IMG/VR virus record: IMGVR_UViG_3300028840_005764
Coordinates: 32,001-96,000 of that record
Strand: one strand, 5' to 3'
Source: a virus
Length of the DNA: 64,000 nt
Shown piece by piece: positions 26,451 to 63,722 of the stretch; position 1 is the first letter of the stretch; the number at the start of each line of letters is the position of its first letter. The notes beneath the pieces are model-generated. The model was not told where the DNA came from. It searched no databases and saw only the letters and a list, made by a program, of their open reading frames with translations. The translations under genes were made by a program, and so were the position numbers.

Positions 26451-27950
26451 ATGAGCAAACGTTTCACTATCTATGTGTCGCCATCAGAATGTTCGATCGA
26501 GCCACAACTTCCCATTCGTGTCGTGCGTGCCATCAATAAAGTCACGTCGTTTGAGTTGCCAGGAGCTTGGGTTTCTGGTTTTGGACCGCGAAGGAGATAC
26601 TTGTTTTCGCAGGCTAAGCAGAAATTTCCGGTCGGGCTTCTGAAACGCGTGCGTAGAACAATAAAGAAAAATGGGTATAGAACTAAGACAATTGATTATA
26701 GAGATGAAGTAGATGTTGATGAAGATCAATTATCAGATGTGATTGATAGCCTTGATAGAATACCGAGATGGTATCAAGTAGAAGGTATTGTATCAGGTAT
26801 CAAATATCCATATGGATTATTTTGGTGGCCAACTGGTTCAGGAAAAACCACGCTTTTTAGTGTGTTGTTATTATGCTATGACATCCCCTCCCTTATCCTA
26901 ACTCACAGGCGTGAGTTGCTATACCAATTGAAGTCTCAGATTTCCGCCATTACAGACCATGAAGTTGGAATCATTGGTGACGGAAAATGGAAACCCAAAA
27001 AGTGGACTGTTGGTATCGTAAATAGTTTTATAAATAAAGGCTCGATACGAGACACACGTGTTAAAGAATATTTGAACACTGTTGAGTATTTGATTATAGA
27101 TGAGTGTCATCATTTGGGCGCAAGTACATGGATCAATATAGCCAGAGGATGTAGAAATACCAAAGCTCGTCATGGTTTCTCTGGGACATGTTTCAGAACA
27201 GACAATGCAGACCTCTTACTTCTGGCACATACCGGAGATGTGATTAGTAAATTCACTACAAGTTATATGATAGACAATGGTTGGTTGTCTAGGCCGCATA
27301 TATACTCAGATGAAATAAATTACAAAGGGGAGACTGGTTCTGGTAGTAGTTGGCACACAGTACAGAAAGAACTCATTGTCGATAATCTGATAAGAAATCT
27401 GAAAGGTTGTAAGTTTATATACGATAATTATTGTAAGAATTTACAAGTATTGGTTATGGTAAATCGTATTGCACACGGTCATGTGCTTCGTTCAATGCTG
27501 CAGGGCGAATATGGTGTTGAAGGTCGCGATATTAGATTCATGACTGGCAGCGAGGCGTGGAATGTCAGAGAAAAGGCGCTTGAGGATTATCGTTCTGGGG
27601 TATATCCAATATTGATAGGGACTTCGATTTATGACGAGGGTATTGATTTACCAACCGTTGGCGCGGCGGCGAATATGGCTGGTGGTGATAGTGATATCAA
27701 AACCACACAGCGTCTTGGCCGCGCGATACGCAAGGTACCTACCCCTGGCGAGGCTGATGTAGATCCTGATACGGAACAAACAGTCAACTACTACGATCCT
27801 TTTGATAAGGGTCACGCATTTGTCAGAAAACACAGCAAACACAGACACGCAGTATATGAAAATGAAAAAGCCTTTGTTAAGTGTGGTGCATGGGGAGAAT
27901 CAATTGATAAAAAGACATCCAAGACCAAAGCTTCCAAAAAAAGATGTTGA
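26451..27950 (+). CDS. SF2 DEAD/DEAH helicase (UvsW-like)
   Basis: PTGSGKT Walker A, DECH, EGIDLP and QRLGRAIR motifs. Confidence 0.9.
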   Translation: MSKRFTIYVSPSECSIEPQLPIRVVRAINKVTSFELPGAWVSGFGPRRRYLFSQAKQKFPVGLLKRVRRTIKKNGYRTKTIDYRDEVDVDEDQLSDVIDSLDRIPRWYQVEGIVSGIKYPYGLFWWPTGSGKTTLFSVLLLCYDIPSLILTHRRELLYQLKSQISAITDHEVGIIGDGKWKPKKWTVGIVNSFINKGSIRDTRVKEYLNTVEYLIIDECHHLGASTWINIARGCRNTKARHGFSGTCFRTDNADLLLLAHTGDVISKFTTSYMIDNGWLSRPHIYSDEINYKGETGSGSSWHTVQKELIVDNLIRNLKGCKFIYDNYCKNLQVLVMVNRIAHGHVLRSMLQGEYGVEGRDIRFMTGSEAWNVREKALEDYRSGVYPILIGTSIYDEGIDLPTVGAAANMAGGDSDIKTTQRLGRAIRKVPTPGEADVDPDTEQTVNYYDPFDKGHAFVRKHSKHRHAVYENEKAFVKCGAWGESIDKKTSKTKASKKRC

Positions 27951-28443
27951 AGAAGCGACAACAGGTAGTGTTGTTGATTTTTCAAAGATCAGACAAGCAT
28001 CTAAAAATCGCAAAAAACAAAAGTTATCAGAGGCACGAAATGCTAAGGTAATAATGTCTCAATTGAAGAAAATGTTTCAAGAATTACATGAAGAAATATT
28101 TGGTACACAGTTTCCATTCAAAGGAAAAACTCATTTTGTTACTGTGCGAACTAAAGGGAAGTTGATCAGGAGACGTTATCGTTCTGATAGCTCTGTGTTA
28201 TATGAGATATATAAATATAATAAGGCTATCTACGGTATAGATTTAGATGATTTTAAAAGATTTCTATTATATGTGTTTAATACAATTGAAAATACTACTA
28301 TCAAAAATGTAAGGCAAGTTATGTCAGTGTTGTCTGATGAATCTGATAAATATTTCATAGAAAAATACAAACGCCAAATAGGCAAAAGAAAACTAAAGAA
28401 ACAAATGAGAAGAGTTGAAGAGGATGCAAAGTTTTTTGAGTGA
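27904..28443 (+). CDS. Basic hypothetical protein, possible replication initiator/DNA-binding protein
   Basis: GGAG RBS before TTG 27904; located just before helicase loader and helicase. Confidence 0.5.
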   Translation: MIKRHPRPKLPKKDVEEATTGSVVDFSKIRQASKNRKKQKLSEARNAKVIMSQLKKMFQELHEEIFGTQFPFKGKTHFVTVRTKGKLIRRRYRSDSSVLYEIYKYNKAIYGIDLDDFKRFLLYVFNTIENTTIKNVRQVMSVLSDESDKYFIEKYKRQIGKRKLKKQMRRVEEDAKFFE

Positions 28444-29266
28444 AGATAAGGATGAATGTAGGGTTTCACTGGTATCGCAACAAGCAGCGAAACTCAAAAC
28501 AGAACTCATCGGTAGTTGCCAACGATGTGATGGAAGAGGACGTATATTAACTCCATATTTTTCTGAACAAACTCTATCGTTGAGAACATTTCCTTGTAAA
28601 TGTTATAGAAGATTTATTTATTTATTCGATATGATGGTTTCAGGAGTATCTTATGAAATGGCGCGTGAAATAATAGATATAAAATGGGAAGACACAGAAG
28701 TTGTGGAATTAGATATATTCGCTGGCAAAGAATATCCACGTGGTAAAACACAATTGTATGCAGATAACTTATCTCCGTACATGAAGAACATGGAAAAGGT
28801 TATTGATAGAGGATACAGTTTTCTATTTATAGGTGTCAACAATACTGGAAAAACTTTTGCGTCAATGAAAGTATTACATCATTTCCTTAAATATAAGCAT
28901 AGCGGACATTTTATAAAGTTTCGCAAATTGATGAAGCTTATTAATGATTCATTTCAAAGCGATAAAAAAGGTAGATTTTCCAGAGATTTATTGAATGAGA
29001 TTGCTAATGTCGATTTATTAATTATAGATGAGTTTGGTAAGGAGACAGGCAAAAGAGAACATATCGCAGCAGAGGCTGAAGAGTTGCTTAAAGATCGTGA
29101 TATGGCTAGAAAGCCCACTATTGTGATAACGAATAATACTTATAAAGAATTGCAAGAACTTTATACAATGAATATTGTAGGTGCATTCATAAGAAATTAT
29201 AGAGCATTATTATTTAATCCCAAAAAGAATTTTAGAAAGCTCGCCAGAGAAGATTGGTATAAATAA
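28424..29266 (+). CDS. DnaC/IstB-like helicase loader ATPase
   Basis: CxxC...CxC N-terminus, GVNNTGKT Walker A, LLIIDEFG Walker B, PTIVITN. Confidence 0.85.
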   Translation: MQSFLSEDKDECRVSLVSQQAAKLKTELIGSCQRCDGRGRILTPYFSEQTLSLRTFPCKCYRRFIYLFDMMVSGVSYEMAREIIDIKWEDTEVVELDIFAGKEYPRGKTQLYADNLSPYMKNMEKVIDRGYSFLFIGVNNTGKTFASMKVLHHFLKYKHSGHFIKFRKLMKLINDSFQSDKKGRFSRDLLNEIANVDLLIIDEFGKETGKREHIAAEAEELLKDRDMARKPTIVITNNTYKELQELYTMNIVGAFIRNYRALLFNPKKNFRKLAREDWYK

Positions 29267-31671: not shown

Positions 31672-32502
<831 letters not shown>

Positions 32503-32541: not shown

Positions 32542-32979
32542 ATGGATGAAACAAATAGAACGAGGCACCGTGCCGTTGACCGTATTGATGGCTGCATAAT
32601 ACCTACTGGGTTTGAGTACTTCGTCGAGCTAATGGAGGAAATTAGTGCGGTGAAACACAAGGGTACTGTAAGCGTTTTTTTGGATGAAACTGAGCGCCCT
32701 TTTCTATCTATCATGAAACAGGGCAGCAATAATCAGCGCATCACTATCGTGCTCAATAAGAGTAGAGAGTGGGAGCCAACAAGACGTTACAAAAGTATTA
32801 CTCTTGAACCATGGCATACAGGAGATATCAGAGTTACGGTGCCTGCGAACGAGAAAGCACTGAAACAGGCATTCAAGCTTGCACGCGAGTGGAAAGAGGC
32901 AAAGGATTTCCATAAGCCCACTACCACTGTGCTTGGTACAAAAAAAGGTATACGACGTCGGCCTCGTCCAAAACTGTAG
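32542..32979 (+). CDS. Hypothetical protein with C-terminal IRRRPRPKL tag
   Basis: ORF in operon. Confidence 0.6.
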   Translation: MDETNRTRHRAVDRIDGCIIPTGFEYFVELMEEISAVKHKGTVSVFLDETERPFLSIMKQGSNNQRITIVLNKSREWEPTRRYKSITLEPWHTGDIRVTVPANEKALKQAFKLAREWKEAKDFHKPTTTVLGTKKGIRRRPRPKL

Positions 32980-37776: not shown

Positions 37777-38769
37777 ATGGCCGTCAAGACTGACCTGGCC
37801 AAGCTAGGTAAACGGGCCGCCGATCATAAAGCTGGTAGGGACAGATATGACGGCCCAGGCAATTTCATAGTTGAAGCAGATTCAAGCAGGTTCATCATTC
37901 TCTGCCCACCGCACGAAAACATGGGTGGTTATCCATTCGTCGAAAACATGTATCATCACCGTGATATACCACGGGATGCTAATGGTAGTTTCAACATCCG
38001 CTGTATGCGGAATAACTACAAAGATGATACTAATAAATGCGCACCTTGTACAAAGATGGTCAAATTCAGAAAGAAGCGCAAGGACAAGGGCGACAAATGG
38101 GATGAGAAAGCGCGCGAACACGCACCAAAGTTGAAGCCAATTGGGCAGGTGATCGACATTACCTGTATCATGCGTGCCAATGGCGAGATTAAGAAAAAAG
38201 TCAAGCCGTGTTTTGGCGCTTATGGCGACGAAGACGGTTGTGACAAGTGCTATATGCGCGACGCGTGTGAGGACCTCCCCAAGAAGTACTATTGCCCAGT
38301 GGGCGTGTGGGAGGAGCTGCTCGACCATTTCGAGGACGAGGGCGACATCACAGACTTGAGTAAGGCTATCCCAATTCGTATTAAGCGTAAGGGTTCTGGT
38401 CGCTACGATACGAAGTACAAGACCAAGGCCTTCCCAAAGTCGGCTATCGAGTTCCCATCCAAAGCCAGGAAGCGTATCGAGAAAGCGCTCTATGATCTAA
38501 GTACTCTGGATCCAAAACCAGAGGGTACGGCGGATGAGATAAAAGAAAAGTACAGAAAGTTCTTCTCACTGGAGGATATAGATACTGACACCAGTGGCGA
38601 TGATGATGACGACGAGCCCAAGCGTCGTCCGCGGTCTGGTGGTAAGAAAAAATCTGCAAAGAAAAATAACAAAAAGAAGTCCAGTGAGAATACGGACAAA
38701 AAGAAACGCGGCGAGAAGCTCAGGAACAAGTTGAAGAAGAAAGCGAAGAAGGGCAAACTCGACCGTTAG
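37777..38769 (+). CDS. gp32-like single-stranded DNA-binding protein (putative)
   Basis: HH..C..CAPC zinc site; GDITD...IRIKRKGSGRYDTKY motif typical of phage gp32-like SSBs. Confidence 0.65.
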   Translation: MAVKTDLAKLGKRAADHKAGRDRYDGPGNFIVEADSSRFIILCPPHENMGGYPFVENMYHHRDIPRDANGSFNIRCMRNNYKDDTNKCAPCTKMVKFRKKRKDKGDKWDEKAREHAPKLKPIGQVIDITCIMRANGEIKKKVKPCFGAYGDEDGCDKCYMRDACEDLPKKYYCPVGVWEELLDHFEDEGDITDLSKAIPIRIKRKGSGRYDTKYKTKAFPKSAIEFPSKARKRIEKALYDLSTLDPKPEGTADEIKEKYRKFFSLEDIDTDTSGDDDDDEPKRRPRSGGKKKSAKKNNKKKSSENTDKKKRGEKLRNKLKKKAKKGKLDR

Positions 38770-38781: not shown

Positions 38782-39867
38782 ATGATTTGTCGAATCCCCC
38801 GTAGGAAGACAGAGCACACACAGAAAAAAAAGGTATCCAGAAATCAGTTGATTCGTTCGCTGAAGAAAATCGGATACAAAGATCTATCGGATCAATCGAG
38901 TTCTCTGCTTGTTCGGCGATGTCTTCCTACGGGGATTCCATGTCTCGACGTGCTCTCAGCCTGTGACGTGGATGGTGTCTACGGCTTACCATTTGGCCGT
39001 CAGATTGAATTCTCCGGGAAAGAAGATTCTGGTAAGACCAGCATCATGCTGGCCATAGCGGCCTCTGCACAGCGCCAGGGGTACATCGTGCTTTGGATAG
39101 AGACAGAGCAGACTTTGTCAAAGGAAAGAGCTCAGGTGCTGGGCGCTGACATCGATTACTTCCTGTTGGATGAGCCTGACTACCTGGAACAGGCCATATC
39201 TCGTGTCAAAAAAGCGGTGGAAAAATTACCACAATATGATGAGAAAGGATATTCGAAGAATAAAGGTCTTGTGATTTTTTGGGACAGCATTGCCGCTACT
39301 CCAACAAAGGCAGAGTATGCGCCCAAGAAAAAGAAAGACGTCGATGAGGAAAAAGACAGTGCGATGGCTGATTTCGCAAGGAAGATGTCTCGCTTTCAAC
39401 GGCAAATGAAGAAGAAGATTGCGAAGCGCAATGTGATGATGATCTACGCTAATCAAATCAAAGAGAAGATTGGTGTTATGTTTGGCTCGAAGACCGCCAC
39501 TTACGGTGGGAAGGCGCTGAAGTATCATTGTACATTGAGATTCGTGATCACATACACGGGAAAAATAAAAGGGAAAAATAACAAACCAGTCGGTATGACT
39601 ATAAAAGTAGATAACATAAAGAATAAATGTCGTATGCCATTCAGAGGTTTTGAGGGCTTGGAATTCACCTTCGGCGGTGGATTCAATTATCCACAAGCTC
39701 TTTTGTATGCTTTGGAAACACTTGGGTATGCAAAGAAAGAAGGACCAAAATATTTTGTGTATCCATTGGGTCAAGAAGCATCTTATAAAAAATCTGAATT
39801 CGAGAAGTTAATAAAAAATAAACCTGTGATAGCAAGAAAACTCATGGAAGTTGTCAATGGTTCCTAA
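38782..39867 (+). CDS. recA: RecA/UvsX recombinase
   Basis: LPFGRQIEFSGKEDSGKT, WDSIAA, NQIKEKIGVMFG, GGKALKY, KNK. Confidence 0.9.
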   Translation: MICRIPRRKTEHTQKKKVSRNQLIRSLKKIGYKDLSDQSSSLLVRRCLPTGIPCLDVLSACDVDGVYGLPFGRQIEFSGKEDSGKTSIMLAIAASAQRQGYIVLWIETEQTLSKERAQVLGADIDYFLLDEPDYLEQAISRVKKAVEKLPQYDEKGYSKNKGLVIFWDSIAATPTKAEYAPKKKKDVDEEKDSAMADFARKMSRFQRQMKKKIAKRNVMMIYANQIKEKIGVMFGSKTATYGGKALKYHCTLRFVITYTGKIKGKNNKPVGMTIKVDNIKNKCRMPFRGFEGLEFTFGGGFNYPQALLYALETLGYAKKEGPKYFVYPLGQEASYKKSEFEKLIKNKPVIARKLMEVVNGS

Positions 39868-43925: not shown

Positions 43926-44554
43926 TGTCTATACACACCGATAATCGCGCAGCTATGTTCAAAAGAGATACCAAAACTAAGTGGCAAACGCCACTTTGGT
44001 TTTTTCGTTTCTTTGATAATCAGTATCATTTTGAATGGGATATGGCTGCGTCTAAAAAGAATCGATTATGTAAGAAATACGTCAATCAGAAGATGGACGC
44101 CACGTCGTTTGATTGGCCATCTAACAGCAGTCTTTGGTGTAATCCACCATATGATAGTCGTCGTCTGCATTTGTGGTTTGAACGCGGGTGGGATGCGGCT
44201 AGACATGGTTCTACGGTCGTGTTCCTTGTGCATGCGCGTACAGATACTGTGTGGTATCACGAGTGGGCTATACGTGGTCATGTTGGTTTCGTACGAGGCA
44301 GGATGAAATTTCTGTACAAAGACAGAGAGACAGATGCTGCGCCATTTCCATCTTTAGTGGTGATATATGATCCAAAAGCTGTCGAAAATTATGAGAAGAG
44401 TGGTATAGATCTATTACATCATTTTGATGGCTTCTGTATCGATGGTCGTTTGGGGACAACTTGGAGGAAATTACCACGTTATCCTAGGGCAATTGTTAGA
44501 TACCCAAGAAAAATAATAAGAACACCAAAACCAAAACATTGGAGTGGAAAGTGA
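43922..44554 (+). CDS. Phage DNA N6-adenine methyltransferase (Dam family)
   Basis: WQTP, D.AAS..N, WCNPPY, ARTDT, APFPS motifs. Confidence 0.88.
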   Translation: MMSIHTDNRAAMFKRDTKTKWQTPLWFFRFFDNQYHFEWDMAASKKNRLCKKYVNQKMDATSFDWPSNSSLWCNPPYDSRRLHLWFERGWDAARHGSTVVFLVHARTDTVWYHEWAIRGHVGFVRGRMKFLYKDRETDAAPFPSLVVIYDPKAVENYEKSGIDLLHHFDGFCIDGRLGTTWRKLPRYPRAIVRYPRKIIRTPKPKHWSGK

Positions 44555-45276: not shown

Positions 45277-45669
45277 ATGATTTGCAAAGCAATAAAATAC
45301 CATCCACGTCCTCTCATTCAACGGTTTCCTAGACCGAAGCGTATACCGTATCCAAAAAAACCAATCCACCGAGGCGAATGCCGTGATGGCATACGTCCAT
45401 GTCCTTTTGTTTCATGTAGGTATCATCTTTACGCAGATATAGTATCTGGTGTTTGGAAAGAATATTTTGAGGCTCCATGGCTTATGGAGGAGACGTGTGC
45501 TCTTGATTTGGCTGAAAGAGAACGTGGTATGAATCTTGATGACATTAGTTATTATTTTGATCTAACACGCGAGAGAATAAGGCAAATAATAGATAATTCT
45601 TTAAGAACCATCAGAACAAGAAAATTAGCTAGAGATAGGTCTATTCATGATAAAATTTCTATCGGTTGA
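45277..45669 (+). CDS. Cys-rich sigma-70 region-4-like HTH protein
   Basis: RPCPFVSCRYHL..ETCALD followed by MNLDDIS..LTRERIRQI. Confidence 0.75.
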   Translation: MICKAIKYHPRPLIQRFPRPKRIPYPKKPIHRGECRDGIRPCPFVSCRYHLYADIVSGVWKEYFEAPWLMEETCALDLAERERGMNLDDISYYFDLTRERIRQIIDNSLRTIRTRKLARDRSIHDKISIG

Positions 45670-48323: not shown

Positions 48324-49084
48324 TGGCGAAGAAACCGATTCCAGTCCAAGAACAGCGTCGTTTATTGGTCGAGAACATGAGATATTTACATCATGTTTTC
48401 ACCAGTTACGATAAACAATGGGTGATGGGAATCGATCCATCGTTGAATCATACAGCTGTAGCAGTGCAAAAAATACGGAAAAAGCGTGTCAAAGTATCCA
48501 GTTCACCAGCTACAATACGAGATTCAAAGCAGAAAAAAACCGCTACACATCGAATCGCGCTTACCCGTCATTTCCTGATAAACCAGGTTCAAAAATACCC
48601 ACCATTATTGATTGCGGTTGAAGGCTATGCCTACGGCCGCGCCATGAATCGTGAGCTGCTTGGAGAAGTCGGAGGTATGATTCGTCTGAATGTGTTTTGG
48701 GATCATCCAGATGAAGTTGGGCCGGTATTGATTGTTGGTGCCACGCAATTGAAAAAATTCATTTTGGGTTCAGGAACAGTAGGAGGTGGTAAAAAGACAA
48801 AACAATTAATAATTATGAATGTGTTTAAGAAATGGGGTATTGAAGTAGCTGATGATAATGAAGCTGATGCTATAGTGTTGGTTAGGATGGCAAAAGAATT
48901 CGTGAAATTTGTTTTAAAATTACATGATAAAATTCCGTCTGATGAAAAAGGATTACGTAATTTTGTAAATAATGGATGGGAAGAATATGGATATAAAAAA
49001 TATATATGGGAAATATTTTGTTCGTTTGTGATCAATAAAGGTAATAACCAGCTCTTTGATTTTTGTAGTGAAGGCAAACTATGA
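48323..49084 (+). CDS. RuvC-like Holliday junction resolvase
   Basis: MGIDPSL..TA, AVEGY, LKKF..G, DNEADA. Confidence 0.85.
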   Translation: MAKKPIPVQEQRRLLVENMRYLHHVFTSYDKQWVMGIDPSLNHTAVAVQKIRKKRVKVSSSPATIRDSKQKKTATHRIALTRHFLINQVQKYPPLLIAVEGYAYGRAMNRELLGEVGGMIRLNVFWDHPDEVGPVLIVGATQLKKFILGSGTVGGGKKTKQLIIMNVFKKWGIEVADDNEADAIVLVRMAKEFVKFVLKLHDKIPSDEKGLRNFVNNGWEEYGYKKYIWEIFCSFVINKGNNQLFDFCSEGKL

Positions 49085-49635
49085 AAATTAAGAGAAGGCC
49101 TAGAAAAATTTATAGAATTCCAAAAGAATCTTTGAAAAAAGGATGTGTTCTTGAGAGTAAATACTTTCCATATAAGTTGTTAATGTATATTATCAAATGG
49201 GGTATACCATATAATTTATATTCCAATAACAAAATGTATTATTTGAATATATTGGGTAAGGCGAAATACAAAAGAGAGAAACATTTTAATAGAAAGCCAA
49301 GAAGTTATTCTTCATGCGAGCCAATTTATAATAACGGCGTTAAACCTAAAGACAAAGACCCAGTTTTATATAAACAATATAAACAATTGAGAGAATGTTT
49401 TATTAATAAGGGTAGGCCATTACATGTTTACTGTGAATATGACATGCATCAGGTATCTTTGGAAACTTGTTTTTGCAGGTGTGATAAAGAATGTTCTTCG
49501 CTGCGGCCTCGCTGGTTGGTTGGGGAAGATGATGGTTTGTACAGTTATATGAATGATTTTATGAAATTGCAGAGGTTGGTCAATTTGTTGTACGGCACCG
49601 TTAGAAAACGTGACATAGAACCAACCAATCAATGA
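49081..49635 (+). CDS. Hypothetical basic protein with N-terminal IKRRPRK tag
   Basis: ATGA-coupled ORF. Confidence 0.55.
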   Translation: MKIKRRPRKIYRIPKESLKKGCVLESKYFPYKLLMYIIKWGIPYNLYSNNKMYYLNILGKAKYKREKHFNRKPRSYSSCEPIYNNGVKPKDKDPVLYKQYKQLRECFINKGRPLHVYCEYDMHQVSLETCFCRCDKECSSLRPRWLVGEDDGLYSYMNDFMKLQRLVNLLYGTVRKRDIEPTNQ

Positions 49636-55126: not shown

Positions 55127-55633
55127 TTATTCCTTTGGTCTTGGATATCTTTGTATTGATACACTTGCTTTTCTTCTTGTCTCATGTTCATAACATTTGA
55201 TGCAGATGCTGTGAGGCCAGTCGCCAACTCGTCTGAGTAGTGATACGAGACATGCGATTTCGGCTTTGGCGTTGTACGGTAGTAATATGTTTGGAGGCTT
55301 CTTGATGGTTATGGCTTTGCCAGTACTGCCGATGATTAGCAGCCCCCAGTTATCTGGGACTTCATGTTTTTCAATGATCCCCGCTGGTGCACAGTAGTAG
55401 CGGATTCTACCCATCCCCATCTCAGTCTTCTTCCTAAAGCTCTTTTTTTTGTCCTTTAGGAAATCAGATCTTGAGATCTTGCATTCAATAACTACGCTCA
55501 CATTGCTACCAAATGCAAGTACGTCTGGTGACTCACGTGTCGTGCTAACAATTTCTGTTATCACAACTGGATATTTTTTCTTGGCCCAGCGTGCAGCTTT
55601 TGCGATGACTTGTTCATGTGTGTAAGTGTACAT
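55127..55633 (-). CDS. PD-(D/E)XK nuclease-like protein (MmcB-like)
   Basis: PDVLAF..IECKISRSDFLKD..K..RYYCAP..WGL. Confidence 0.75.
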   Translation of the reverse strand: MYTYTHEQVIAKAARWAKKKYPVVITEIVSTTRESPDVLAFGSNVSVVIECKISRSDFLKDKKKSFRKKTEMGMGRIRYYCAPAGIIEKHEVPDNWGLLIIGSTGKAITIKKPPNILLPYNAKAEIACLVSLLRRVGDWPHSICIKCYEHETRRKASVSIQRYPRPKE

Positions 55634-55661: not shown

Positions 55662-56225
55662 TTATTGAGTTTTTGGTCTTGGATATCTTTTTATTGGCCT
55701 GGGGTATCTTTTTATTTTTGCATTAAGTTCTTTTTTCTTACCGCCATTCCATAATTTGTTTTGACAAATATATCCTATAGTAGACAAATGCACTCCATAT
55801 ATTGATGCAATGTATTTTAATGTATTACCATGTGTACGTAGTGTCTTAATCTCTTCAACGTCTTGTTCAGATAATTTAGCACTTGGATTTTTAGAACCCA
55901 CTAATGAACGTTGATCAAGTATCATGTCATTCATATTATCTTGATGTGTGCCGATGATTAAATGTTTTGGGTTACAGCACAATGTATTATTGCATGTGTG
56001 TCGCACACACATACCACTTGGGATTGGTCCATTGACATCTTCATACACAAGTCTGTGGGCCCTATACCATTTGCGATGTTTTTTTGAATAGTATACTTTG
56101 AACTCACCATAGTAGTTGTTAGTGCGACCCGATCTGGACTTCGCACCAGTCCATAACCAACATTCGTTAGGACCGCGCTGTTCTATCTTCTCCCATATGC
56201 GTTTGTGTATCTCTTTGTCGATCAT
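55662..56225 (-). CDS. HNH endonuclease with C-terminal HTH
   Basis: CWLWTG, AHRL, HTCNN..CCNPKHL..GT..DN. Confidence 0.9.
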   Translation of the reverse strand: MIDKEIHKRIWEKIEQRGPNECWLWTGAKSRSGRTNNYYGEFKVYYSKKHRKWYRAHRLVYEDVNGPIPSGMCVRHTCNNTLCCNPKHLIIGTHQDNMNDMILDQRSLVGSKNPSAKLSEQDVEEIKTLRTHGNTLKYIASIYGVHLSTIGYICQNKLWNGGKKKELNAKIKRYPRPIKRYPRPKTQ

Positions 56226-56896: not shown

Positions 56897-56973
56897 TGGC
56901 GGGCCCAACGGGATTCGAACCCGTGTTACCGGCGTGACAGGCCAGCGTGCTAACCTGGCTACACTATGAGCCC
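56897..56973 (-). tRNA. tRNA-Asp(GTC)
   Basis: Cloverleaf, encoded CCA. Confidence 0.92.
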
Positions 56974-56977
56974 ATAC

Positions 56978-57163: not shown

Positions 57164-57416
57164 GGCGTATGTCTTCTGACATCTTCTCTTCGTCTTTTTT
57201 TCTCTTCGCTCGTACCATGTGTTCGGGGATCGCTATCATCGACACACTGATCTGTGGCCCTTTCTCTCCGAACTTCCAAATCTCGTTCTGGATGATGGTA
57301 TGTAGCCGTCCGATCTCTTTCGGCGTAAACCATTCACAGTCCTGAGTTTCGGCACAGAAATGCACACGATGGTATAACGGCTCGTCTCTTTTTATGTTTT
57401 TCCCAATACCCACCAC
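57156..57416 (-). CDS. Hypothetical protein
   Basis: AAGGAG RBS. Confidence 0.5.
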   Translation of the reverse strand: MVGIGKNIKRDEPLYHRVHFCAETQDCEWFTPKEIGRLHTIIQNEIWKFGEKGPQISVSMIAIPEHMVRAKRKKDEEKMSEDIRHE

Positions 57417-57455
57417 ATCTCCTTTCAGAAGTACGGCGGGGTACTTCTGAAATTT

Positions 57456-58322
57456 TCAATCCACCCAGGCCACACCTTCCATGCGGCCCTCGTTGGACTC
57501 GGTATTGCGAATCACCTTGCGCCAGCTCTTGAACGACACCGTCTTGTGCTCCGGGTGCCGCACCTTCCCGCGCACGAAGATCTCCCGCCCCCTGATCGAG
57601 TAGCCATGCTCGAGGCGCACTCCATCAGCGACGATCAGCTCTTCTGCCACGTGCTGGTTCCCACCACCTCCACGTCTTCCTCGCCTGGCTGCGGCGATGT
57701 CGACTTTCCTTTGCACCAGGCCTTTGCCTACCGCTTCGTCGATATTGGCCTGCTCGTTGGCGTCCACGTTGAGGAAGAACCATTCTCCCTGGCGGATGGT
57801 ACGCCCCATCTGCTTGCCTTCGTACAGCCACACGGTCGGAGCCTTGAGTCTGTCGTGGGCCCGCTGGACCGTTGGTGCCGCTTCTGGCAGCTGGGCGATG
57901 AACAATTGTCTTTCGTCCACACCCAACAGAAAGTGGCGTTTGTTGCTCGATGTGCGCCGACGGACAACCACACGCCCCTTCTTCAGACGGCGCACGATGT
58001 CTCGCTGTGGCACTTCACGCGCGACGTACTGGCCCACCTCCTCGGTGAATTCCCGGGCCTTTTCGTGGACCATCAACACCAGTTGACTGAGTTTTTTGTC
58101 GGTGTTGATCACCTGGATGTTCACCTCTTCGCCAGGCCAGATCCTGAAGTATTCGCTGCGCCAGTTGCCCTTGATCTTGCGCTGGATGTCCATGCCGAAC
58201 ACAGCGCGGTTGACACCTCGGCCACCGACAGGATTGTCTGTGATTTCCAACTTGAGACCGGCCTTCGCGAATTGCGAGACCAGCGACTCGCACATGATTC
58301 TGAACTGACCCTTCATCAACAT
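57456..58322 (-). CDS. Conserved-looking hypothetical protein (RQGEWFF ... HPEH motifs)
   Basis: High-GC ORF; FLLGVDER.LFIAQLP, RQGEWFF, RG.VRHPEH. Confidence 0.7.
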   Translation of the reverse strand: MLMKGQFRIMCESLVSQFAKAGLKLEITDNPVGGRGVNRAVFGMDIQRKIKGNWRSEYFRIWPGEEVNIQVINTDKKLSQLVLMVHEKAREFTEEVGQYVAREVPQRDIVRRLKKGRVVVRRRTSSNKRHFLLGVDERQLFIAQLPEAAPTVQRAHDRLKAPTVWLYEGKQMGRTIRQGEWFFLNVDANEQANIDEAVGKGLVQRKVDIAAARRGRRGGGGNQHVAEELIVADGVRLEHGYSIRGREIFVRGKVRHPEHKTVSFKSWRKVIRNTESNEGRMEGVAWVD

Positions 58323-58337
58323 CTTGTGTCCTTTTGA

Positions 58338-58409
58338 CGAGCGGCTAAGGAATCGAACCCTACAGACGGTCGGGTTTGGAGCCCAACCCGCTTACCCAGA
58401 GCGCCGCCC
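58338..58409 (-). tRNA. tRNA-Trp(CCA) with atypical D-arm register
   Basis: TTGGG-CTCCAAA-CCCGA; T arm normal; G73. Confidence 0.72.
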
Positions 58410-58411
58410 AA

Positions 58412-58487
58412 TGGCTCCAGGGGTGGGGCTCGAACCCACGGCCAGCGACTTAACAGGCCGCCGCTCTACCAGCTGAGCTACCCTGGA
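58412..58487 (-). tRNA. tRNA-Asn(GTT)
   Basis: Cloverleaf, encoded CCA. Confidence 0.92.
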
Positions 58488-58680
58488 ACAGGCGCAGCTC
58501 TTACCAATTGAACGGGCTACTAAGTCGATCTGACCCGGACAATAAGTCCGAATATGGCAGAGAAAAGGAGGTTGTGGTTTGGACCATGAACGTGACGCTG
58601 GTTGTAGTTTTCATGGCATCCTCCTGTGGGATCATTCGATCCTATCACCCACCATCGGCAAAGCACAACTCAAAATATAA

Positions 58681-58869
58681 TTATTTTCTAATTATTTTTG
58701 GCGATGGGGTTGGGGATAATGATTGTTGATTGGACTCTTCTTCAAGTTCTTGAGTACATTGCTCACAAACAACTATATGCATACCATCATAAGGCATGAA
58801 TTTATATGGAGGATTTCCGCATAATTCGCACGGCACTGCGCATTCAACATTTATTTTGTCTGTTGCCAT
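58681..58869 (-). CDS. Small zinc-finger protein
   Basis: CELC...CEQC. Confidence 0.45.
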   Translation of the reverse strand: MATDKINVECAVPCELCGNPPYKFMPYDGMHIVVCEQCTQELEEESNQQSLSPTPSPKIIRK

Positions 58870-59357
58870 GGTTTCCCCTCATCAAGAACATGTTGTTGTA
58901 TTTCCTTGAACGTGACTTGTGGTTTTTCACCGGATTTAAACATAGTAGATGTCGGAGTTGGTTTTGTTATAGTAACTAGTTTTTTATCATGTGATGATTC
59001 TTCAGCTACGCATTGGCTATCCTGGCATTCGTGCATTACGGGACAGTCGCTATCCGATTGACATTCTCCCATGAATGCTCTGATTGCATCAGGTTCATCA
59101 GCTGCTGACACCGGCATCATAGGTGCCGCTGTATTCATTTGAAGTTTTATTTCATACATTAGATCTTTTAGTTCATCATGTTTTTCATTTAGTTTAGATA
59201 TTTCTTGTGTTGAATAATTAAATAAACTATGAAGCATTAATTCATTTTTACTGTCACTTTTGATTGCAGCTATTAATGCAGCTATTGCTGTAATCAATGC
59301 TGGTATAGATACTAGAATATTTTTTGAGCCGCTGACTTTTTTCTCCTTATCAGACAT
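58851..59357 (-). CDS. Membrane-anchored protein with Cys-rich CxxDxDCPxxxxCxxxxC unit
   Basis: GGAGG RBS; N-terminal TM helix, coiled coil, CQSDSDCPVMHECQDSQC. Confidence 0.65.
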   Translation of the reverse strand: MSDKEKKVSGSKNILVSIPALITAIAALIAAIKSDSKNELMLHSLFNYSTQEISKLNEKHDELKDLMYEIKLQMNTAAPMMPVSAADEPDAIRAFMGECQSDSDCPVMHECQDSQCVAEESSHDKKLVTITKPTPTSTMFKSGEKPQVTFKEIQQHVLDEGKPWQQTK

Positions 59358-59422
59358 ATCATCCCTCCTTGTGCTGATTTAATCGTTATAGTATCACAAT
59401 AAGTAATCAGTACCAGGAGTAA

Positions 59423-59495
59423 CGCGTCCGGCAGGATTCGAACCCGCGTAGTTCTGATTAGAAGTCAGATGCCTGATCCCCTAGGCTACGGACGC
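59423..59495 (-). tRNA. tRNA-Arg(TCT)
   Basis: TCTGA-CTTCTAA-TCAGA. Confidence 0.9.
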
Positions 59496-59575
59496 GAAAG
59501 AAGTGGTGATAGCCGCCCACATCACTATCACCCGCACAAGCCCCAACCGAACCAAATGCTTGCACATCCCTGTAA

Positions 59576-59649
59576 CACGCCCGGCAGGATTCGAACCTGC
59601 GACCTCCTGGCCCGCAACCAGGCACGCTATCCAACTGCGCTACGAGCGC
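59576..59649 (-). tRNA. tRNA-Arg(GCG)
   Basis: CCTGG-TTGCGGG-CCAGG. Confidence 0.88.
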
Positions 59650-59840
59650 TCGTCTTCGTCGATGAAGACTGTATTTTTTGGAAGTTTTTTTAGACTGAAT
59701 GGTAACTCTTGATGATAATCCTCTGGTGGGAAAATACCCACAGGTATAAGAGTTTGTGTTGTAGCTGTCATCACTTCGTGGTCACCATACCCATCTTCGA
59801 TGAGTTCAGTGATTCTTTGGTGTAGTTCCGATAGTGTCAT
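59640..59840 (-). CDS. Small hypothetical protein
   Basis: MTLSELHQRI...GYGDHEV; follows ARPP-like gene. Confidence 0.5.
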   Translation of the reverse strand: MTLSELHQRITELIEDGYGDHEVMTATTQTLIPVGIFPPEDYHQELPFSLKKLPKNTVFIDEDERS

Positions 59841-59841
59841 T

Positions 59842-60825
59842 TTACGCACCTGCTGAGCACAGAGACACATAAGGGTAGCCTTGCCGTTCCTTATACAGAA
59901 TTTGCCCAGCCAGTTGTTGGTTGGCTACAGTCGCCACACTCATCTTGGGCAGTCTGCTGTCGGCTGCACCTTCTGACAGCAGCGGCTGTTGTGTCACGTG
60001 TTCGATCGTTTTTTCGCTCAGCAGTTTGACCTGCGCATTGGCGTTTTTCAGTGCGCGGTGAATACCAGCCAGCGATTTGACCTCCACGCTCATGGGCACA
60101 AAGAATTTTGACGCTTGCCTGTGCCGCTTTTGATACTGAATTGCGAGTGAGCCGTAGCAGACTCTTATCAGTGGTTCCCACACACGTTCCCAGAACGCCA
60201 TGTTTGGAGCGCGTTCGACACCAACCACGTTTTCTCCCAGCAAGATGATGGCACCAATTTGTTTTGGCACCAACTCAAACTCAGCTACGAACTCATCCAG
60301 CTGCTTTTCAAAGTGCTTCAAGAAGTAAGTGAGGTGGCCACCAGTATGTGGCACTCCACTTTCTTTGTTCAGACTTCTGATGTGCGGCCAGATCTTGTCA
60401 TAACCTTGTCTGTGTCTCATACTGAGAGCATGAGATCGTATTGATGCTGGCAATACCAACATGGTGATCGCTTTCTGGTCTCTGATGTAACCACCTTGGC
60501 TGTCCTCGATGCACATGGCTGTCTCGATGGACTTGCGGCCGTTTGCTTTGACCAAAAACGCGCTTGGCACAGCGTGGTCTTGTGCACGTTCTCTTGTCAC
60601 CCAACCAGCACCTGTCGGTACGATGCTTGGTCGTGTGCTGTCTGTATTGCGCACTTGAACCGTACCATAGTTCGATGTTTCCACATGGAAGTCTGGTGGT
60701 GCGAAGTCGTCATCTTGCGCGTCGCCCTCGTCGATGAGCGGGATGACAGACATGTGGCCCACGGTTTGGGTTCTGCCACGTCCCATTCCTCTGAGGATTT
60801 CTTCGACTGTGAGGTTGCGTGTCAT
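59842..60825 (-). CDS. ARPP-1/DUF6569-like protein
   Basis: MSVIPL..V.N..RP...AQDH...CIE..QGG and QIGAII....VGVE pattern recalled from that family; ATGA-coupled to vWA gene. Confidence 0.55.
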   Translation of the reverse strand: MTRNLTVEEILRGMGRGRTQTVGHMSVIPLIDEGDAQDDDFAPPDFHVETSNYGTVQVRNTDSTRPSIVPTGAGWVTRERAQDHAVPSAFLVKANGRKSIETAMCIEDSQGGYIRDQKAITMLVLPASIRSHALSMRHRQGYDKIWPHIRSLNKESGVPHTGGHLTYFLKHFEKQLDEFVAEFELVPKQIGAIILLGENVVGVERAPNMAFWERVWEPLIRVCYGSLAIQYQKRHRQASKFFVPMSVEVKSLAGIHRALKNANAQVKLLSEKTIEHVTQQPLLSEGAADSRLPKMSVATVANQQLAGQILYKERQGYPYVSLCSAGA

Positions 60826-62435
60826 GACAGTGCCTTTCTCGTCTCAACTGACCCCAGGGCCAGACGTAGTAGGGCGTTGATTCCATTCACTGGCTCTGCC
60901 TCGATCATCCCTCGGATGAAGGTGGCTGTGAGCTGCCCAGGTTGCTGCACTGGCATTGTTGGTACACCGTCGTTGGGCGCCAGCTCACGTGCACCTTTCG
61001 ACTCGGCAGCGAACACCGGGTTTAAATGATACACAGGCGTATCAATACCGATCTCCCGCACGTGGTGCATGACCTCAGCGAAGCGCCCGGCTGGTGCATT
61101 CTCGTATCCGTCGCTGATCACGAACACAGCCTCGGGTTCGTCGTTCAGCGCCTCCACCAAGCTGTCAGCAATGGCTGTGTCACCCATCGGACGGACGAGA
61201 CCATCGCCAGCTTCGATGTCTGTACCACTGACATGGTACTCCTGACTCTCATCACCGGTGTGCAACAGGGTGTCGCGCATGGCCAAGGCCACCGCCAGGG
61301 GTCGCAGTGGTTGGCTGCGGTGACCAGCCATCGATTGTGACGCGTCCACGATGACGGCCACCGATTTGTAGCGCGTTGGGAACATCGCTGCGGTCTCCTT
61401 CGCCTTCTCGTCCAAGGCGTTCGCAATCTCTTGCGTCAGCCCACACTCGAACGCGTAGAGGTATAGGCGCACAGCGTCGTACTTCGTCGGGTCCATGTCG
61501 ACTTCGACGTTTGCGCGCTTTGCTCTTTTCTGTACTGCCATCTTCTGGTGGCCGGTGAGCTTGCCGCCCTTGGCCACAAGTTTCAGCACATCCTCCTTCT
61601 TCGTGTCGGGGTGGTATGTGCTTCTCAGGCCCTCCAGGACCTCCAGAGGAAGTTTAGAGCCAGCCTTGATATCTTCCTTCGCTTTTTCAAACGAAACGAA
61701 GAGAGGCAGGCTCAGGCGTTCACGCACGTCCAGGATGAAGCCCACGCACTCGAGCACTTCCTTGTATCTGTTCAGCTGGCAGTGCTTCCGGATGTTCTGC
61801 TCGAGAATCGTTAGCTCCTTCTTCTTTCGGTAACGCCCACCCTTCTTCAGGATCGATCCGATGATTGATGTTAGCCGTAGGCCCCAGGCGTGGGTCAGTG
61901 CCGCCCGCATTTTTGTCCTGTACTTCACCGACCAGAGTTGCAGTCTCGGGCTCGAGAGCAGCGTGCGCAGGATCAGTTTTCTTGTCCTGGCGTTGTTCGC
62001 CTTCTTCAGACCCAGGGATGCATCACCCACCCGCAGTCCATCGATCAGCTTCAACATGCGCTGTGGTGGCAGAGCTTGGAACAGGTGGTACAGCACCATG
62101 CGTTCTTGTCCCGGCTCGAGGAACGCTTGTTCCACGCCGTTCCGGGGGAATGACAGCAGCTTCTTCATACCGATCTGCACGCTGCGGTCGGTCAACCCTG
62201 GCAGCGTCAACAGCACGGCGTATACGTCCCTCTCCAGGCCAAAGAGTTCGTCGTGCACACGCAGTTCGGCAGCCTGTTGTTCGGCGCGCGTGTTGTAGTG
62301 CGTCGCGCGCCCCATGGAGCTGACAGCTGTGTCCAGGAATGAGCAGACGGATTTGCTCATCTTCTTCACAGCAGTCTTGTTCCGTGGCATCCACAGCAGC
62401 TGTTCATTCGAGTGCGTTTGCACCAACGTATTCAT
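60822..62435 (-). CDS. Helical N-terminal + C-terminal vWA protein (Ro60/TROVE-like architecture)
   Basis: GAGGTGA RBS; basic all-helical N-terminal ~350 aa; MIDAS VIVDASQSM...T...VFVISDGYEN. Confidence 0.7.
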   Translation of the reverse strand: MNTLVQTHSNEQLLWMPRNKTAVKKMSKSVCSFLDTAVSSMGRATHYNTRAEQQAAELRVHDELFGLERDVYAVLLTLPGLTDRSVQIGMKKLLSFPRNGVEQAFLEPGQERMVLYHLFQALPPQRMLKLIDGLRVGDASLGLKKANNARTRKLILRTLLSSPRLQLWSVKYRTKMRAALTHAWGLRLTSIIGSILKKGGRYRKKKELTILEQNIRKHCQLNRYKEVLECVGFILDVRERLSLPLFVSFEKAKEDIKAGSKLPLEVLEGLRSTYHPDTKKEDVLKLVAKGGKLTGHQKMAVQKRAKRANVEVDMDPTKYDAVRLYLYAFECGLTQEIANALDEKAKETAAMFPTRYKSVAVIVDASQSMAGHRSQPLRPLAVALAMRDTLLHTGDESQEYHVSGTDIEAGDGLVRPMGDTAIADSLVEALNDEPEAVFVISDGYENAPAGRFAEVMHHVREIGIDTPVYHLNPVFAAESKGARELAPNDGVPTMPVQQPGQLTATFIRGMIEAEPVNGINALLRLALGSVETRKALS

Positions 62436-62493
62436 AGCATCACCTCTCCCGTGGAGTTCTCCATCAAATTGTTTGTGGAGGAAAGGAAAGATC

Positions 62494-62563
62494 TAGCGGT
62501 AATTACGGAAGCTGGGTCTTTGACATAAACTATTTGTCTGAACCAGCATCACAGTTCCCGCTA
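62494..62563 (-). ncRNA. Minimal GAACU-N10-UUCAG motif RNA (no tRNA domain)
   Basis: TAGCGG/CCGCTA ends, GCTGG/CCAGC stem, GACA/TGTC apical hairpin. Confidence 0.65.
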
Positions 62564-62570
62564 AAAGAAA

Positions 62571-62694
62571 TGGTTGAGTCAATTAGAGCATCACGTTTTC
62601 TAAGTGACTGGACTTGAACCAGCTACCTACGGTTTTCAGGACCGTTGCTCTTTCCAACTGAGCTACACTAAAGTGACCCTCAAGTTCTCAACCA
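62571..62694 (-). ncRNA. Y-RNA-like: tRNA cloverleaf whose acceptor stem is extended by the GAACU-N10-UUUAG module
   Basis: TGGTTGAG/CTCAACCA ends; D arm, ACGGT-CCTGAAA-ACCGT, GCTGG-TTCAAGT-CCAGT. Confidence 0.8.
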
Positions 62695-62709
62695 AAACAA
62701 GGCGTTTAA

Positions 62710-62833
62710 AGCGAGGGAAGTAGGACATCACGATTGAGTGAAAGAGAAGGATTTGAACCTTCAACCTTCGGCTCTGCATGCCGATGCTCGACCACTCGAG
62801 CTGTCTTCCTAAAGTGACCTCCAAGTTCTCGCT
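62710..62833 (-). ncRNA. Y-RNA-like: tRNA cloverleaf (GCA loop) whose acceptor stem is extended by the GAACU-N10-UUUAG module
   Basis: AGCGAG/CTCGCT ends; D arm, TCGGC-ATGCAGA-GCCGA, GAAGG-TTCAAAT-CCTTC. Confidence 0.8.
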
Positions 62834-62837
62834 AAAA

Positions 62838-62871
62838 AATATATACCACAGGTGCTCGAACTTTTCGCAAG
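62838..62871 (-). promoter_or_regulatory. Promoter of the ncRNA-vWA-ARPP unit
   Basis: TTGCGA ... TGTGGTATAT immediately before the first ncRNA; A-rich UP-like tract upstream. Confidence 0.6.
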
Positions 62872-62919
62872 TTTTTTTCTTATTTTTTCACTTTTTCTTC
62901 CATAATATATTGGGTGGAA

Positions 62920-62993
62920 TGCCCCCGGTGGGATTTGAACCCAACGTTGCCGGATTGAAAGCCCGGTGTCCTACCCGTTTGAACGACGGGGGC
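62920..62993 (-). tRNA. tRNA-Glu(TTC)
   Basis: CCGGG-CTTTCAA-TCCGG. Confidence 0.88.
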
Positions 62994-62999
62994 GAAGGA

Positions 63000-63722
63000 T
63001 TATTCTGCAATTGCGTCGTTGATCGCTGCATATATTTCATCTTTTGCTCTTGCTATTTTATAGTATGGAACATGGAAAAATTCAGCTAGATGATTATTAC
63101 GTATCACAAATTCAAATGGCAAATTGGATATGAGGCCTACGTGGCGTTCACGCATTTTTTGAATACGATCGTTTTTAATTTTATTCACCAGCTCTTCTGG
63201 TGGTGTGAGTAGTGAATGTAGGACACGCCGTGCAAAAGGTTTTAATCTTTTTTCTGTGTGTTCTAATATTTCTTTGTATCTATAATCCCATTTTGCTTGG
63301 CATGAATATGGATATGATTTGATTTTATCGACTGAGATATCTTGGTTTTTCATTACCTCAATTTTTACATGTTGTTTTGGATCTTTAGGTGTGTATTTAG
63401 AATCTTTTCTAAATGCTGTCACAGCAGTATTTAAGAAGTTTTTGCGTGCTATATACATACACCAAGTTTTGATTGATGCGCGTGTCTCATCATATTTGTC
63501 TAGATTCTTAAACATTTTTAAATATGCTTCTTGAACAAGATCTTCTTTATCTATAAATGACGGTATAGATACTTTCCCAGCTTCACGCATAAGGAATGGC
63601 CGCAACTCTTGAATAGTTTTGAGGAATAGCTGTTTTCTTTCGTCAGTGACTGTGAATTTTTTCTGGCGTGGATAGAGTTTCGGGCGTGGGCGGAGCTTCG
63701 GGCGTGGTTTTCTGACAATCAC
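63000..63722 (-). CDS. Phage sigma-70-family RNA polymerase sigma factor
   Basis: GGAGG RBS; DKEDLVQEAYL...YD..RASIKTW...ARK region-2 motif; C-terminal HTH. Confidence 0.8.
   Translation of the reverse strand: MIVRKPRPKLRPRPKLYPRQKKFTVTDERKQLFLKTIQELRPFLMREAGKVSIPSFIDKEDLVQEAYLKMFKNLDKYDETRASIKTWCMYIARKNFLNTAVTAFRKDSKYTPKDPKQHVKIEVMKNQDISVDKIKSYPYSCQAKWDYRYKEILEHTEKRLKPFARRVLHSLLTPPEELVNKIKNDRIQKMRERHVGLISNLPFEFVIRNNHLAEFFHVPYYKIARAKDEIYAAINDAIAE

Follow-up and report, generated by a model that had tools for sequence, protein, structure and literature searches.

A portable eight-residue peptide at the termini of unrelated, predicted DNA-acting proteins of a large uncultured phage

Short arms that bind the grooves of DNA include P-R-G-R-P of the AT-hook, G-R-P-R of Hin, K-R-P-R of homeodomains and the SPKK motif, all of them similar in composition to the peptide described here. 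In T4, gp45 binds gp43, gp33 and gp55 through C-terminal peptides, and the internal proteins share N-terminal capsid-targeting peptides; proline-rich antimicrobial peptides bind the substrate cleft of DnaK. To our knowledge, molecular sleds, the virus-encoded peptides to which we return below, have not been described in phages. We analyzed a 64,000-nucleotide window (bases 8124-72123 of an IMG/VR virus record of 104,103 bp; CheckV completeness 73%) from an uncultured phage of ~143 kb, the same proteins of which also occur on contigs of 142.9-143.5 kb. We found that at least 12 unrelated proteins of this phage begin or end with one eight-residue peptide, I/V-x-R-x-P-R-P-K (hereafter the tag), and that, as judged from their sequences, almost all of these carriers are enzymes or regulators working on DNA. 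The motif appears undescribed, as no description of it was found in the full-text literature, and it appears to belong among portable terminal tether or docking peptides.

Over 18 copies, the consensus was I (12/18)-x-R (12)-Y/R-P (18)-R (16)-P (12)-K (12) or I, the position 4 consensus extending to Y/R/F, and each carrier contained 1-4 copies. In tandem arrays, the unit is seven residues long and the Ile of the following unit takes the place of the Lys. N-terminal copies begin at residue 1-6 and C-terminal copies end 1-5 residues ahead of the stop codon, with the N-to-C direction of the peptide identical at both termini. The tag units form 8-28-residue tails on proteins of 124-361 residues that lack signal peptides.

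We compared motif counts in the 110 proteins called on the whole record (30,096 aa, with rough calls in its guanine-cytosine (GC)-rich part) with those in 300 within-protein shuffles. The string PRPK occurred nine times, each time no more than 30 residues from a terminus (9/9), compared to a shuffle mean of 0.21 and a maximum of 2. The pattern R.P[RK][PRK][KI] was found 11 times, always terminally (11/11; shuffle mean 0.24), and [IVL].R.P[RK] 16 times, with 14 of these matches terminal (shuffle mean 1.63). A position matrix derived from the terminal copies produced ~20 matches of at least 14 bits in 12 proteins, where 0.25 were expected, and it found no strong internal match in the proteins of the record.

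Copies that encode the same peptide differ in their codons for Arg (AGA/CGA/CGT/CGG/CGC/AGG), Pro (CCA/CCT/CCC/CCG), Lys (AAA/AAG) and Ile (ATA/ATT). As synonymous codons differ between copies, the repeat exists at the level of protein and is not a DNA element. A DNA-level repeat or start-site element is ruled out by this codon variation together with the C-terminal copies. The tags were located outside every Pfam envelope that we compared, namely RecA (domain 64-300, tag 2-9), Dam (domain 16-153, tags 186-207), the HNH endonuclease (HNH 54-98 and helix-turn-helix (HTH) 117-152, tags 171-185), the sigma factor (region 2 37-106, tags 2-21) and Dcm (domain 37-336, tag 1-8). No tag was present in the nine large tail-like proteins encoded at 1-25.8 kb of the window or in any large virion protein, and DnaE, DnaB and primase were also untagged. 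The tag has the properties of a short linear motif, a peptide of 3-10 residues that lies outside folded domains in flexible segments, and it is portable: its 12 carriers have unrelated domains, and it is gained or lost between orthologues while the peptide itself stays the same. We conclude that the tag is real, terminal, selected at the protein level, portable and variable in its carriers.

These data agree with much of an earlier reading of the window that used no database searches (hereafter the sequence-only reading). It had listed nine copies of the peptide, all of which we recovered in a six-frame scan within the frames of real open reading frames (ORFs). It had also described the peptide as often tandem, as lying outside catalytic domains, as conserved at the protein level and as absent from tail proteins, which the seven-residue arrays, Pfam envelopes, synonymous codons and nine tail-like proteins bear out, and the terminal enrichment over shuffled sequences that it anticipated is seen in the nine terminal PRPK strings against a shuffle mean of 0.21. 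The tagged proteins are listed below, the nine within the window first, with matrix scores in bits or the source of support in brackets.

27904..27939, plus strand: N-terminal tag (L/M)IKRHPRPKLPK of a 179-aa protein (26.6 bits).
32950..32976, plus strand: C-terminal tag IRRRPRPKL, followed by the stop codon, of a 145-aa protein just upstream of DnaE (ORF 32542; 24.0 bits).
38782..38808, plus strand: N-terminal tag MICRIPRRK of RecA (six-frame scan, Pfam, matrix).
44471..44551, plus strand: three tandem C-terminal tags, LPRYPRA/IVRYPRK/IIRTPKPK, and a short tail of the Dam methyltransferase (scan, Pfam, matrix).
45277..45360, plus strand: 3-4 tandem N-terminal tags of a 130-aa protein with a sigma-70 region-4-like HTH (20.2, 25.2 and 14.4 bits).
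49081..49125, plus strand: two N-terminal tags, KIKRRPRK and IYRIPKE, of a four-cysteine (Cys4) protein (scan, matrix, family alignment).
55130..55156, minus strand: C-terminal tag IQRYPRPKE of a PD-(D/E)XK-type nuclease (weak Hjc match, phrog_631; 28.0 bits).
55665..55715, minus strand: two tandem C-terminal tags, IKRYPRP/IKRYPRPK, then TQ, of an HNH endonuclease with an HTH (26.4 and 27.6 bits).
63657..63722, minus strand: three N-terminal tags, VIVRKPRPK, LRPRPK and LYPRQKK, of a sigma-70-type factor with a GTG start (scan, Pfam, matrix).
Beyond the window end: C5 cytosine methyltransferase (Dcm) with the tag MQLKPRPK.
Beyond the window end (L029:1705-2079, minus strand, the same as G000:C1:101705-102079): DUF4031 protein with the tag MPLYPRPKK.
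Beyond the window end: 129-aa protein of no assigned function with the tag KQKYPRAK.

The carriers to which a function could be assigned are RecA, Dam, Dcm, the PD-(D/E)XK nuclease, the HNH-HTH endonuclease, the sigma-70 region 2 factor and the sigma-region-4-like HTH protein. Within this record, 7 of the 20 recognizable DNA proteins were tagged, compared to 5 of the 90 others (Fisher p = 0.001). The 179-aa protein encoded at 27904 lies between the superfamily 2 (SF2) helicase and the helicase loader, with its gene and the end of the helicase gene overlapping in different frames. This ORF is open from a TTG at 27802, and its copy counts as N-terminal only when translation begins with the TTG at 27904; alignment with the orthologue from a complete relative (G001, below) favors a start near 27904. 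In the tagged DUF4031 protein, the domain is fused to a C-terminal stretch that resembles the prepilin N-terminal methylation motif (match to GFTIIE and a hydrophobic helix), which is an odd place for this motif.

We next consider the tag in related phages, where G000 denotes the record of the phage studied and labels such as G001, G002, L009 and L011 denote the records of relatives. G001 is a complete relative (147.7 kb, terminal repeats, 56% GC) that shares 37 proteins, with orthologues 30-55% identical, and G002 is a more distant record (27% identity). The pattern M-[IV]-x-R-x-P-R-P-[KR] is retained by sigma homologues that are 55, 46 and 34% identical, with R4, P6, R7 and P8 invariant, and the RecA tag is kept in the metagenome relatives L009 (MIVRIPRKK) and L011 (MVFRIPKE). 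The comparison of orthologues that the sequence-only reading proposed found the tag invariant on sigma factors down to 34% identity and retained on RecA in two relatives.

G000 and G001 bear the tag on different sets of proteins. In G001, the matrix gave 10 matches where 0.9 were expected, and the carriers were UDG, the Dam orthologue (IIRIPRPA after the methylase domain), an MmcB-like nuclease, a 37264-family protein, the orthologue of the Cys4 protein encoded at 49081 and the large terminase, the copy of which, MKRYPKPL, begins with a Met inside the longest frame. No tag is present on the RecA, sigma, 27904 and 32542 orthologues of G001, which mostly have plain basic ends, those of 32542, RecA and 27904 being K/R-rich. 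The 37264 family has a poly-Lys end in the studied phage and in L009 and ends in PIRRPKPRR in G001. Position 6 is Arg in 16 of the 18 copies of the studied phage and Lys in 6 of 9 copies in the GC-richer G001 (p = 0.006). In G002, tags are absent, and the same gene module encodes two canonical AT-hooks, GRPKGSKNK and GRPLGS. One of them lies N-terminally in the product of the gene next after the RuvC-like gene, the syntenic position of 49081. Homology between this AT-hook protein and the 49081 family was not significant (BLASTP E ~6; hhalign E 0.05-0.12).

The family of the Cys4 protein always carries the tag; the gene of the studied phage is as follows.

49081..49635, plus strand: gene of the 184-aa Cys4-family protein, with an internal tag copy at residues ~69-76 (NRKPRS) and C-x11-C-x3-C-x3-C from residue 118.

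Using a profile built from two orthologues, we searched 1.84 billion representatives and obtained 19 clusters (P0009-P0027), all of them singletons on short metagenome contigs; the family had no Pfam, PHROG or ESM Atlas match. Its members share four invariant Cys residues (C-x11-C-x3-C-x3-C), a C-terminal helix and one tag copy ~45 residues upstream of the Cys domain, the Pro of which is at least 90% conserved. A tag-like segment was present at this internal position in 17 of 18 aligned members. Many members begin with tandem copies, up to about nine of them, in which the spacing of P[RK] peaks at seven residues, and the consensus from these independent sequences is the same as that in the studied phage. 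Some members hold the frame at little charge, with V-R-V-P-A-P-K, Y-Y-P-R repeats or L-x-L-R-P-R repeats. In these alignments, the tag is the constant feature of the 49081 Cys4 family, in which it is ancestral. Both multi-tag phages, G000 and G001, encode a member of the family; none was detected in G002, G003 or G005, the last two being small unrelated phages.

Our preferred reading, which we hold tentatively, is that the tag is a flexible Arg/Pro arm that may bind nucleic acid directly and tether proteins to the phage DNA. In this lineage, many DNA-transaction proteins have gained 1-4 units of the seven-residue motif at their extreme N- or C-termini, and in such a mechanism the arm would contact the minor groove or backbone of DNA. 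Recombinase, methyltransferases, nucleases, glycosylase, sigma factors and terminase would thereby be held concentrated on the phage DNA, perhaps sliding, and more copies would give more avidity. We infer both DNA as the ligand and local concentration or a faster search as the benefit. We favor direct binding because DNA is the only thing common to terminase, sigma factors, methylases, glycosylase, nucleases and recombinase, because no hub gene was recognizable even in the complete G001, and because orthologous termini bear other basic tails or, in G002, true AT-hooks. No one protein stands out as a shared partner for terminase, sigma factor, methylases, glycosylase and recombinase alike, and direct nucleic-acid binding is more economical than docking to a hub. 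As all assignable carriers act on DNA, a regularity that the sequence-only reading did not mention, their identity also points to DNA tethering rather than to sorting.

Arms of the AT-hook (HMGA-type, PF02178), SPKK, Hin and homeodomain kind are, like the tag, short Arg/Pro/Lys peptides outside folded domains, and AT-hook-type arms share with it that they are often multi-copy, occur on many unrelated DNA-acting proteins and are evolutionarily variable. Unlike AT-hooks, which bind the minor groove of AT-rich DNA, the tag conserves Ile/Val as its first and an aromatic as its fourth residue, has a strict seven-residue period and is located at extreme termini only. No copy contains GRP or RGR (RGR strings occur elsewhere in the proteome), and hmmscan returned no AT_hook match. 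Compared to SPKK, a tandem Ser/Thr-Pro-(Lys/Arg)-(Lys/Arg) turn with a period of four, the tag has a period of seven and places Thr before Pro in only one copy (RTPKPK, in Dam), with Y, H, R, K, I or F in the others. Another parallel is the molecular sled (adenovirus pVIc and basic nuclear-localization-signal-type peptides), a terminal peptide that gives its cargo non-specific DNA affinity and one-dimensional diffusion, so that short basic peptides slide on DNA with cargo (PMC4740752, PMC4797294). Sled and tag are both short, basic and terminal, and the sled is a virus-encoded way to unite enzymes and substrates on a genome; the sled core, K-R-R-R, is under little sequence constraint, whereas the tag has a specific signature.

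Several observations weigh against direct DNA binding. Conservation is strong at the non-basic positions of the tag, namely position 1 (Ile/Val), position 4 (aromatic) and positions 5 and 7 (Pro), and the low-charge variants of the 49081 family look more like protein-pocket recognition than groove binding. The Gly-Arg-Pro core of AT-hooks is absent from every copy, and copies are strictly terminal, whereas AT-hooks are often internal. Position 6 shifts from Arg to Lys in G001, as expected from co-evolution with one reader. One carrier, the DUF4031 protein, is small and membrane-anchored. Finally, the link between the AT-hook protein of G002 and the 49081 family consists of synteny and Cys spacing only.

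A possible second explanation, a close rival to which we assign a somewhat lower probability, is that the tag is a docking peptide for one shared DNA-bound protein hub that recruits enzymes, in the manner of a 'toolbelt' code. Under this model, multi-copy carriers would be scaffolds and single-copy carriers would be clients. The hub candidates, all circumstantial, are the 49081 Cys4 domain, the acidic patch of a gp32-like single-strand-binding protein (SSB), a poly-Asp protein, an unrecognized clamp or a host protein such as the beta clamp. The two acidic candidates are encoded in the replication module of the window.

38617..38640, plus strand: weak, degenerate tag copy PKRRPRSG in the tail of the gp32-like SSB (9.7 bits; gene 37777-38769).
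31672..32502, plus strand: 276-aa poly-Asp protein, a candidate partner only, between primase and the tagged ORF 32542.

The gene at 37777-38769 (plus strand) encodes a 330-aa Cys-rich protein that adjoins RecA. It had no Pfam or PHROG match, and its AlphaFold model (mean predicted local distance difference test (pLDDT) score 74) matches the T4/RB69 gp32 core (Foldseek E 1e-6, probability 1.00), so that by its modeled fold it is predicted to be a gp32-type single-strand-binding protein. In place of the usual acidic end, its tail contains an invariant DDDD patch and, after this, a basic helix; the weak tag copy sits right after this patch in a disordered segment (tail pLDDT <50), where relatives have IRKPRPG and VRKPKPKK. 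The poly-Asp protein consists of an H1-like K/A-rich N-terminus, a small Cys motif (CFG..C..C....C), ~150 consecutive Asp residues encoded by an irregular mix of GAT and GAC, and a K-rich tail, with a net charge of -120 and a pI of 4.05. Its possible roles include those of a DNA mimic or acidic scaffold, and G001 has an acidic 369-aa counterpart at the same place, after primase.

In favor of a hub, the signature, which conserves hydrophobic, Pro and basic residues, is specific and stays invariant in sigma homologues at 34% identity; the same consensus arises independently from the 49081 family, which also supplies the low-charge variants. The coordinated change of position 6 in G001 runs opposite to the GC bias of that genome. 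Copies are strictly terminal in either orientation to the domain, like clamp-binding and SSB-tail-type peptides, and the 49081 family is always tagged and shares the distribution of the multi-tag phages, although this co-occurrence rests on three genomes. Hub-binding peptides of the T4 gp45-binding C-termini, the bacterial beta-clamp motif and the partners of the acidic tails of E. coli SSB, T7 gp2.5 and T4 gp32 are likewise cases of one short peptide at either terminus that recruits many unrelated DNA-transaction proteins, a sigma factor among them, to a hub on DNA, although these known motifs are hydrophobic or acidic rather than Arg/Pro-rich. The carriers of the tag (glycosylase, methylases, nucleases, sigma factor and terminase) resemble the client lists of PCNA and T4 gp45. 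Acidic candidates also occur in the same replication module of G000 and G001.

However, no hub was found. There was no beta, gp45-like or other recognizable clamp gene in the record or in the complete G001 (DnaN TIGR00663 and PF02768; gp45 PF09116) nor was a classical (OB-fold) SSB gene present, even in G001, and a Pfam scan of further early genes found no peptide-binding domain. The replicative polymerase, helicase and primase are untagged, and I-x-R-Y-P-R-P-K is unlike any known clamp-binding motif, sharing no position with QL[SD]LF-like or acidic-hydrophobic motifs. Clamp binding, one of the roles raised in the sequence-only reading, is weakened by the lack of a recognizable clamp gene among the phage genes and by the untagged DnaE, DnaB and primase. 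A gp32 hub would leave the sigma factors, methylases and terminase unexplained. The tag pattern I-x-R-x-x-[RK]-P resembles the atypical SH3 ligand [VI]-[DN]-R-x-x-K-P (the 'RxxK' motif), and no SH3-like domain was seen among the phage proteins scanned.

A stronger version of this proposal, which we regard as doubtful, makes the tag an address code for one partner (the 49081 Cys4 domain, the poly-Asp protein or a DNA-bound ring), with which the phage would assemble a toolbelt or replication-factory scaffold. The multi-copy proteins would then be the scaffolds, RecA, methylases, nucleases, glycosylase, sigma factor and terminase would be the clients, and the motif would have no known counterpart.

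It is improbable that the tag is instead a chaperone or protease handle, that is, a host DnaK site or a Clp/Lon-type degron that sets the folding or lifetime of early proteins. This idea draws on the likeness to oncocin, pyrrhocoricin, drosocin and Bac7 (Y-L-PRP, HPRPI, RPRP), on the terminal position typical of degrons and on the observation that a universal host reader would suit phages of 33-56% GC. The resemblance to proline-rich antimicrobial peptides noted in the sequence-only reading holds at the level of sequence, as PRP, Y-x-PRP and HPRPI all occur in a published table of such peptides (PMC10800876) and both share PRP and Y-x-PRP units and a tandem arrangement, and it is a resemblance only. 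The antimicrobial peptides are free, secreted animal peptides of 18-60 residues, built largely from PRP-type units, that act on the DnaK cleft and the ribosome tunnel, whereas the tags are tails of intracellular enzymes. A handle of this kind leaves the restriction to DNA-acting proteins and the nine tandem copies reached in one family unexplained. In addition, known Clp degrons act at one specific end, whereas the tag is found at either terminus; the tag has only a weak form of the hydrophobic core that DnaK prefers, and no J-domain or adaptor gene was seen.

We also consider very unlikely a sorting signal by which proteins would be packed into the capsid and co-injected, or would enter a compartment made by the phage. 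Injected sigma factors, methylases or nucleases would benefit a phage, the tail proteins are untagged, and N-terminal capsid-targeting peptides exist on the T4 internal proteins. The T4 targeting sequence, however, is N-terminal only and marks head-interior proteins, whereas four carriers of the tag have it at the C-terminus and the carriers include terminase, RecA and SSB. The large terminase, tagged in G001, is not a virion component; RecA, UDG and SSB work during replication; and some copies are found at extreme C-termini or on a membrane-anchored protein. We recognized no gene for a shell or an importer, and the identity of the carriers changes freely between relatives. Capsid packaging and compartment import, both raised in the sequence-only reading, thus fit poorly with tagged terminase and membrane-anchored proteins and with copies at the last 1-5 residues; the broader suggestion of a sorting or docking signal stands insofar as the tag is a portable, terminal, protein-level module on unrelated non-structural proteins, and the functions then named are unsupported. 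That the tag is no functional unit at all, and reflects chance or compositional likeness or a DNA or translation-start element read as peptide, is scarcely credible, since the commonness of its residues in a basic, AT-rich proteome and the overlap of several copies with gene starts are outweighed by an at least 40-fold excess over shuffles, the terminal position of all copies and the retention of the peptide by homologues in other metagenomes.

A similar sequence was found on one other group of phage proteins. We scanned IMG/VR with the back-translated pattern M-I-x-R-x-P-R-P-K and obtained 39 places, nearly all of them short or random frames. The one real family comprised winged-helix RepA-like replication initiators (phrog_37920/4707) with an invariant MIxRxPRPK start. 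This start is invariant in one GC-rich subgroup, and cultured homologues start with MIVRGPRP, EIVRGPRK or MAIIRTKRTK. An N-terminal I-x-R-x-(P/K)-R arm is conserved in RepA-like initiators (L035-L037, L044; L072-L076) of unrelated Arthrobacter, Gordonia, Microbacterium, Lactobacillus and Bacteroides phages. In an AlphaFold model of such an initiator, residues 2-4 lie in a beta-strand of the domain, and the phages with RepA-like MIxRxPRPK lack a gp32-like SSB, the 49081 family and any further tagged protein. We do not count these initiators as members of the tag system; their arm is possibly a convergent DNA-binding arm.

The window that contains the tagged genes has three parts. Large tail-like genes occupy 1-25.8 kb, and a plus-strand replication and recombination module at 26.4-51.3 kb encodes an SF2 helicase, an IstB-like loader, DnaB, primase, DnaE, HU, RecA, SbcCD, a class II ribonucleotide reductase, Dam, a DnaQ-like exonuclease, a RuvC-like protein and UDG. 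The rest is a minus-strand block of 23 tRNA genes and small early genes; at 51464-62993 (minus strand), the tRNA genes are interleaved with small ORFs, and several listed 'ORFs' are translated tRNA genes. Searches of cultured phages with RecA, DnaE, sigma or 49081-family queries found no close kin, single-protein queries and the sigma alignment found no kin in IMG/VR, and a word search with the HNH tail alone returned only the query itself.

Several other genes of the record and of its complete relative have unusual features. The protein encoded at 36699-37247 (plus strand) has an HU-type DNA-binding domain after a hydrophobic, DUF4834-like N-terminus and a long K/E/S-rich linker; it could be a membrane-tethered nucleoid protein, and the DUF4834 match hints at a Bacteroidota host. 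The gene at 47528-48094 (plus strand), which lies between SbcC and the RuvC-like gene, encodes an acidic protein of 188 aa that matches no family and has a tail rich in proline (PPGR repeats and a five-Pro run). Beyond the window, G000:C1:78000-90000 is a block of 59-64% GC in a genome of ~42% GC. This block seems to be a lineage feature and not a misassembly, because its neighbors are syntenic with the GC-richest part (61-67%) of G001. The ribonucleotide reductase of G001 (L010/L013 13453-17220, plus strand) is 1255 aa long compared to 876 aa in the studied phage and contains a ~370-residue insert with intein-like ends, and the DnaE of G001 contains an intein-like segment that is absent from the DnaE of the studied phage.

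Should the tag serve as a handle on DNA, or on a hub bound to DNA, eight added residues would give a newly acquired enzyme access to the genome, and the tag would be a cheap, transferable targeting device of a large phage. It would also be a sequence signature that marks DNA-acting proteins among unannotated genes, here those at 27904, 32542 and 49081 and the 129-aa ORF beyond the window, and it makes the 49081 Cys4 family a priority for study. A short peptide that brings cargo to DNA would be a useful tool and, if a dedicated reader exists, tag and reader together would constitute a new orthogonal recruitment module.

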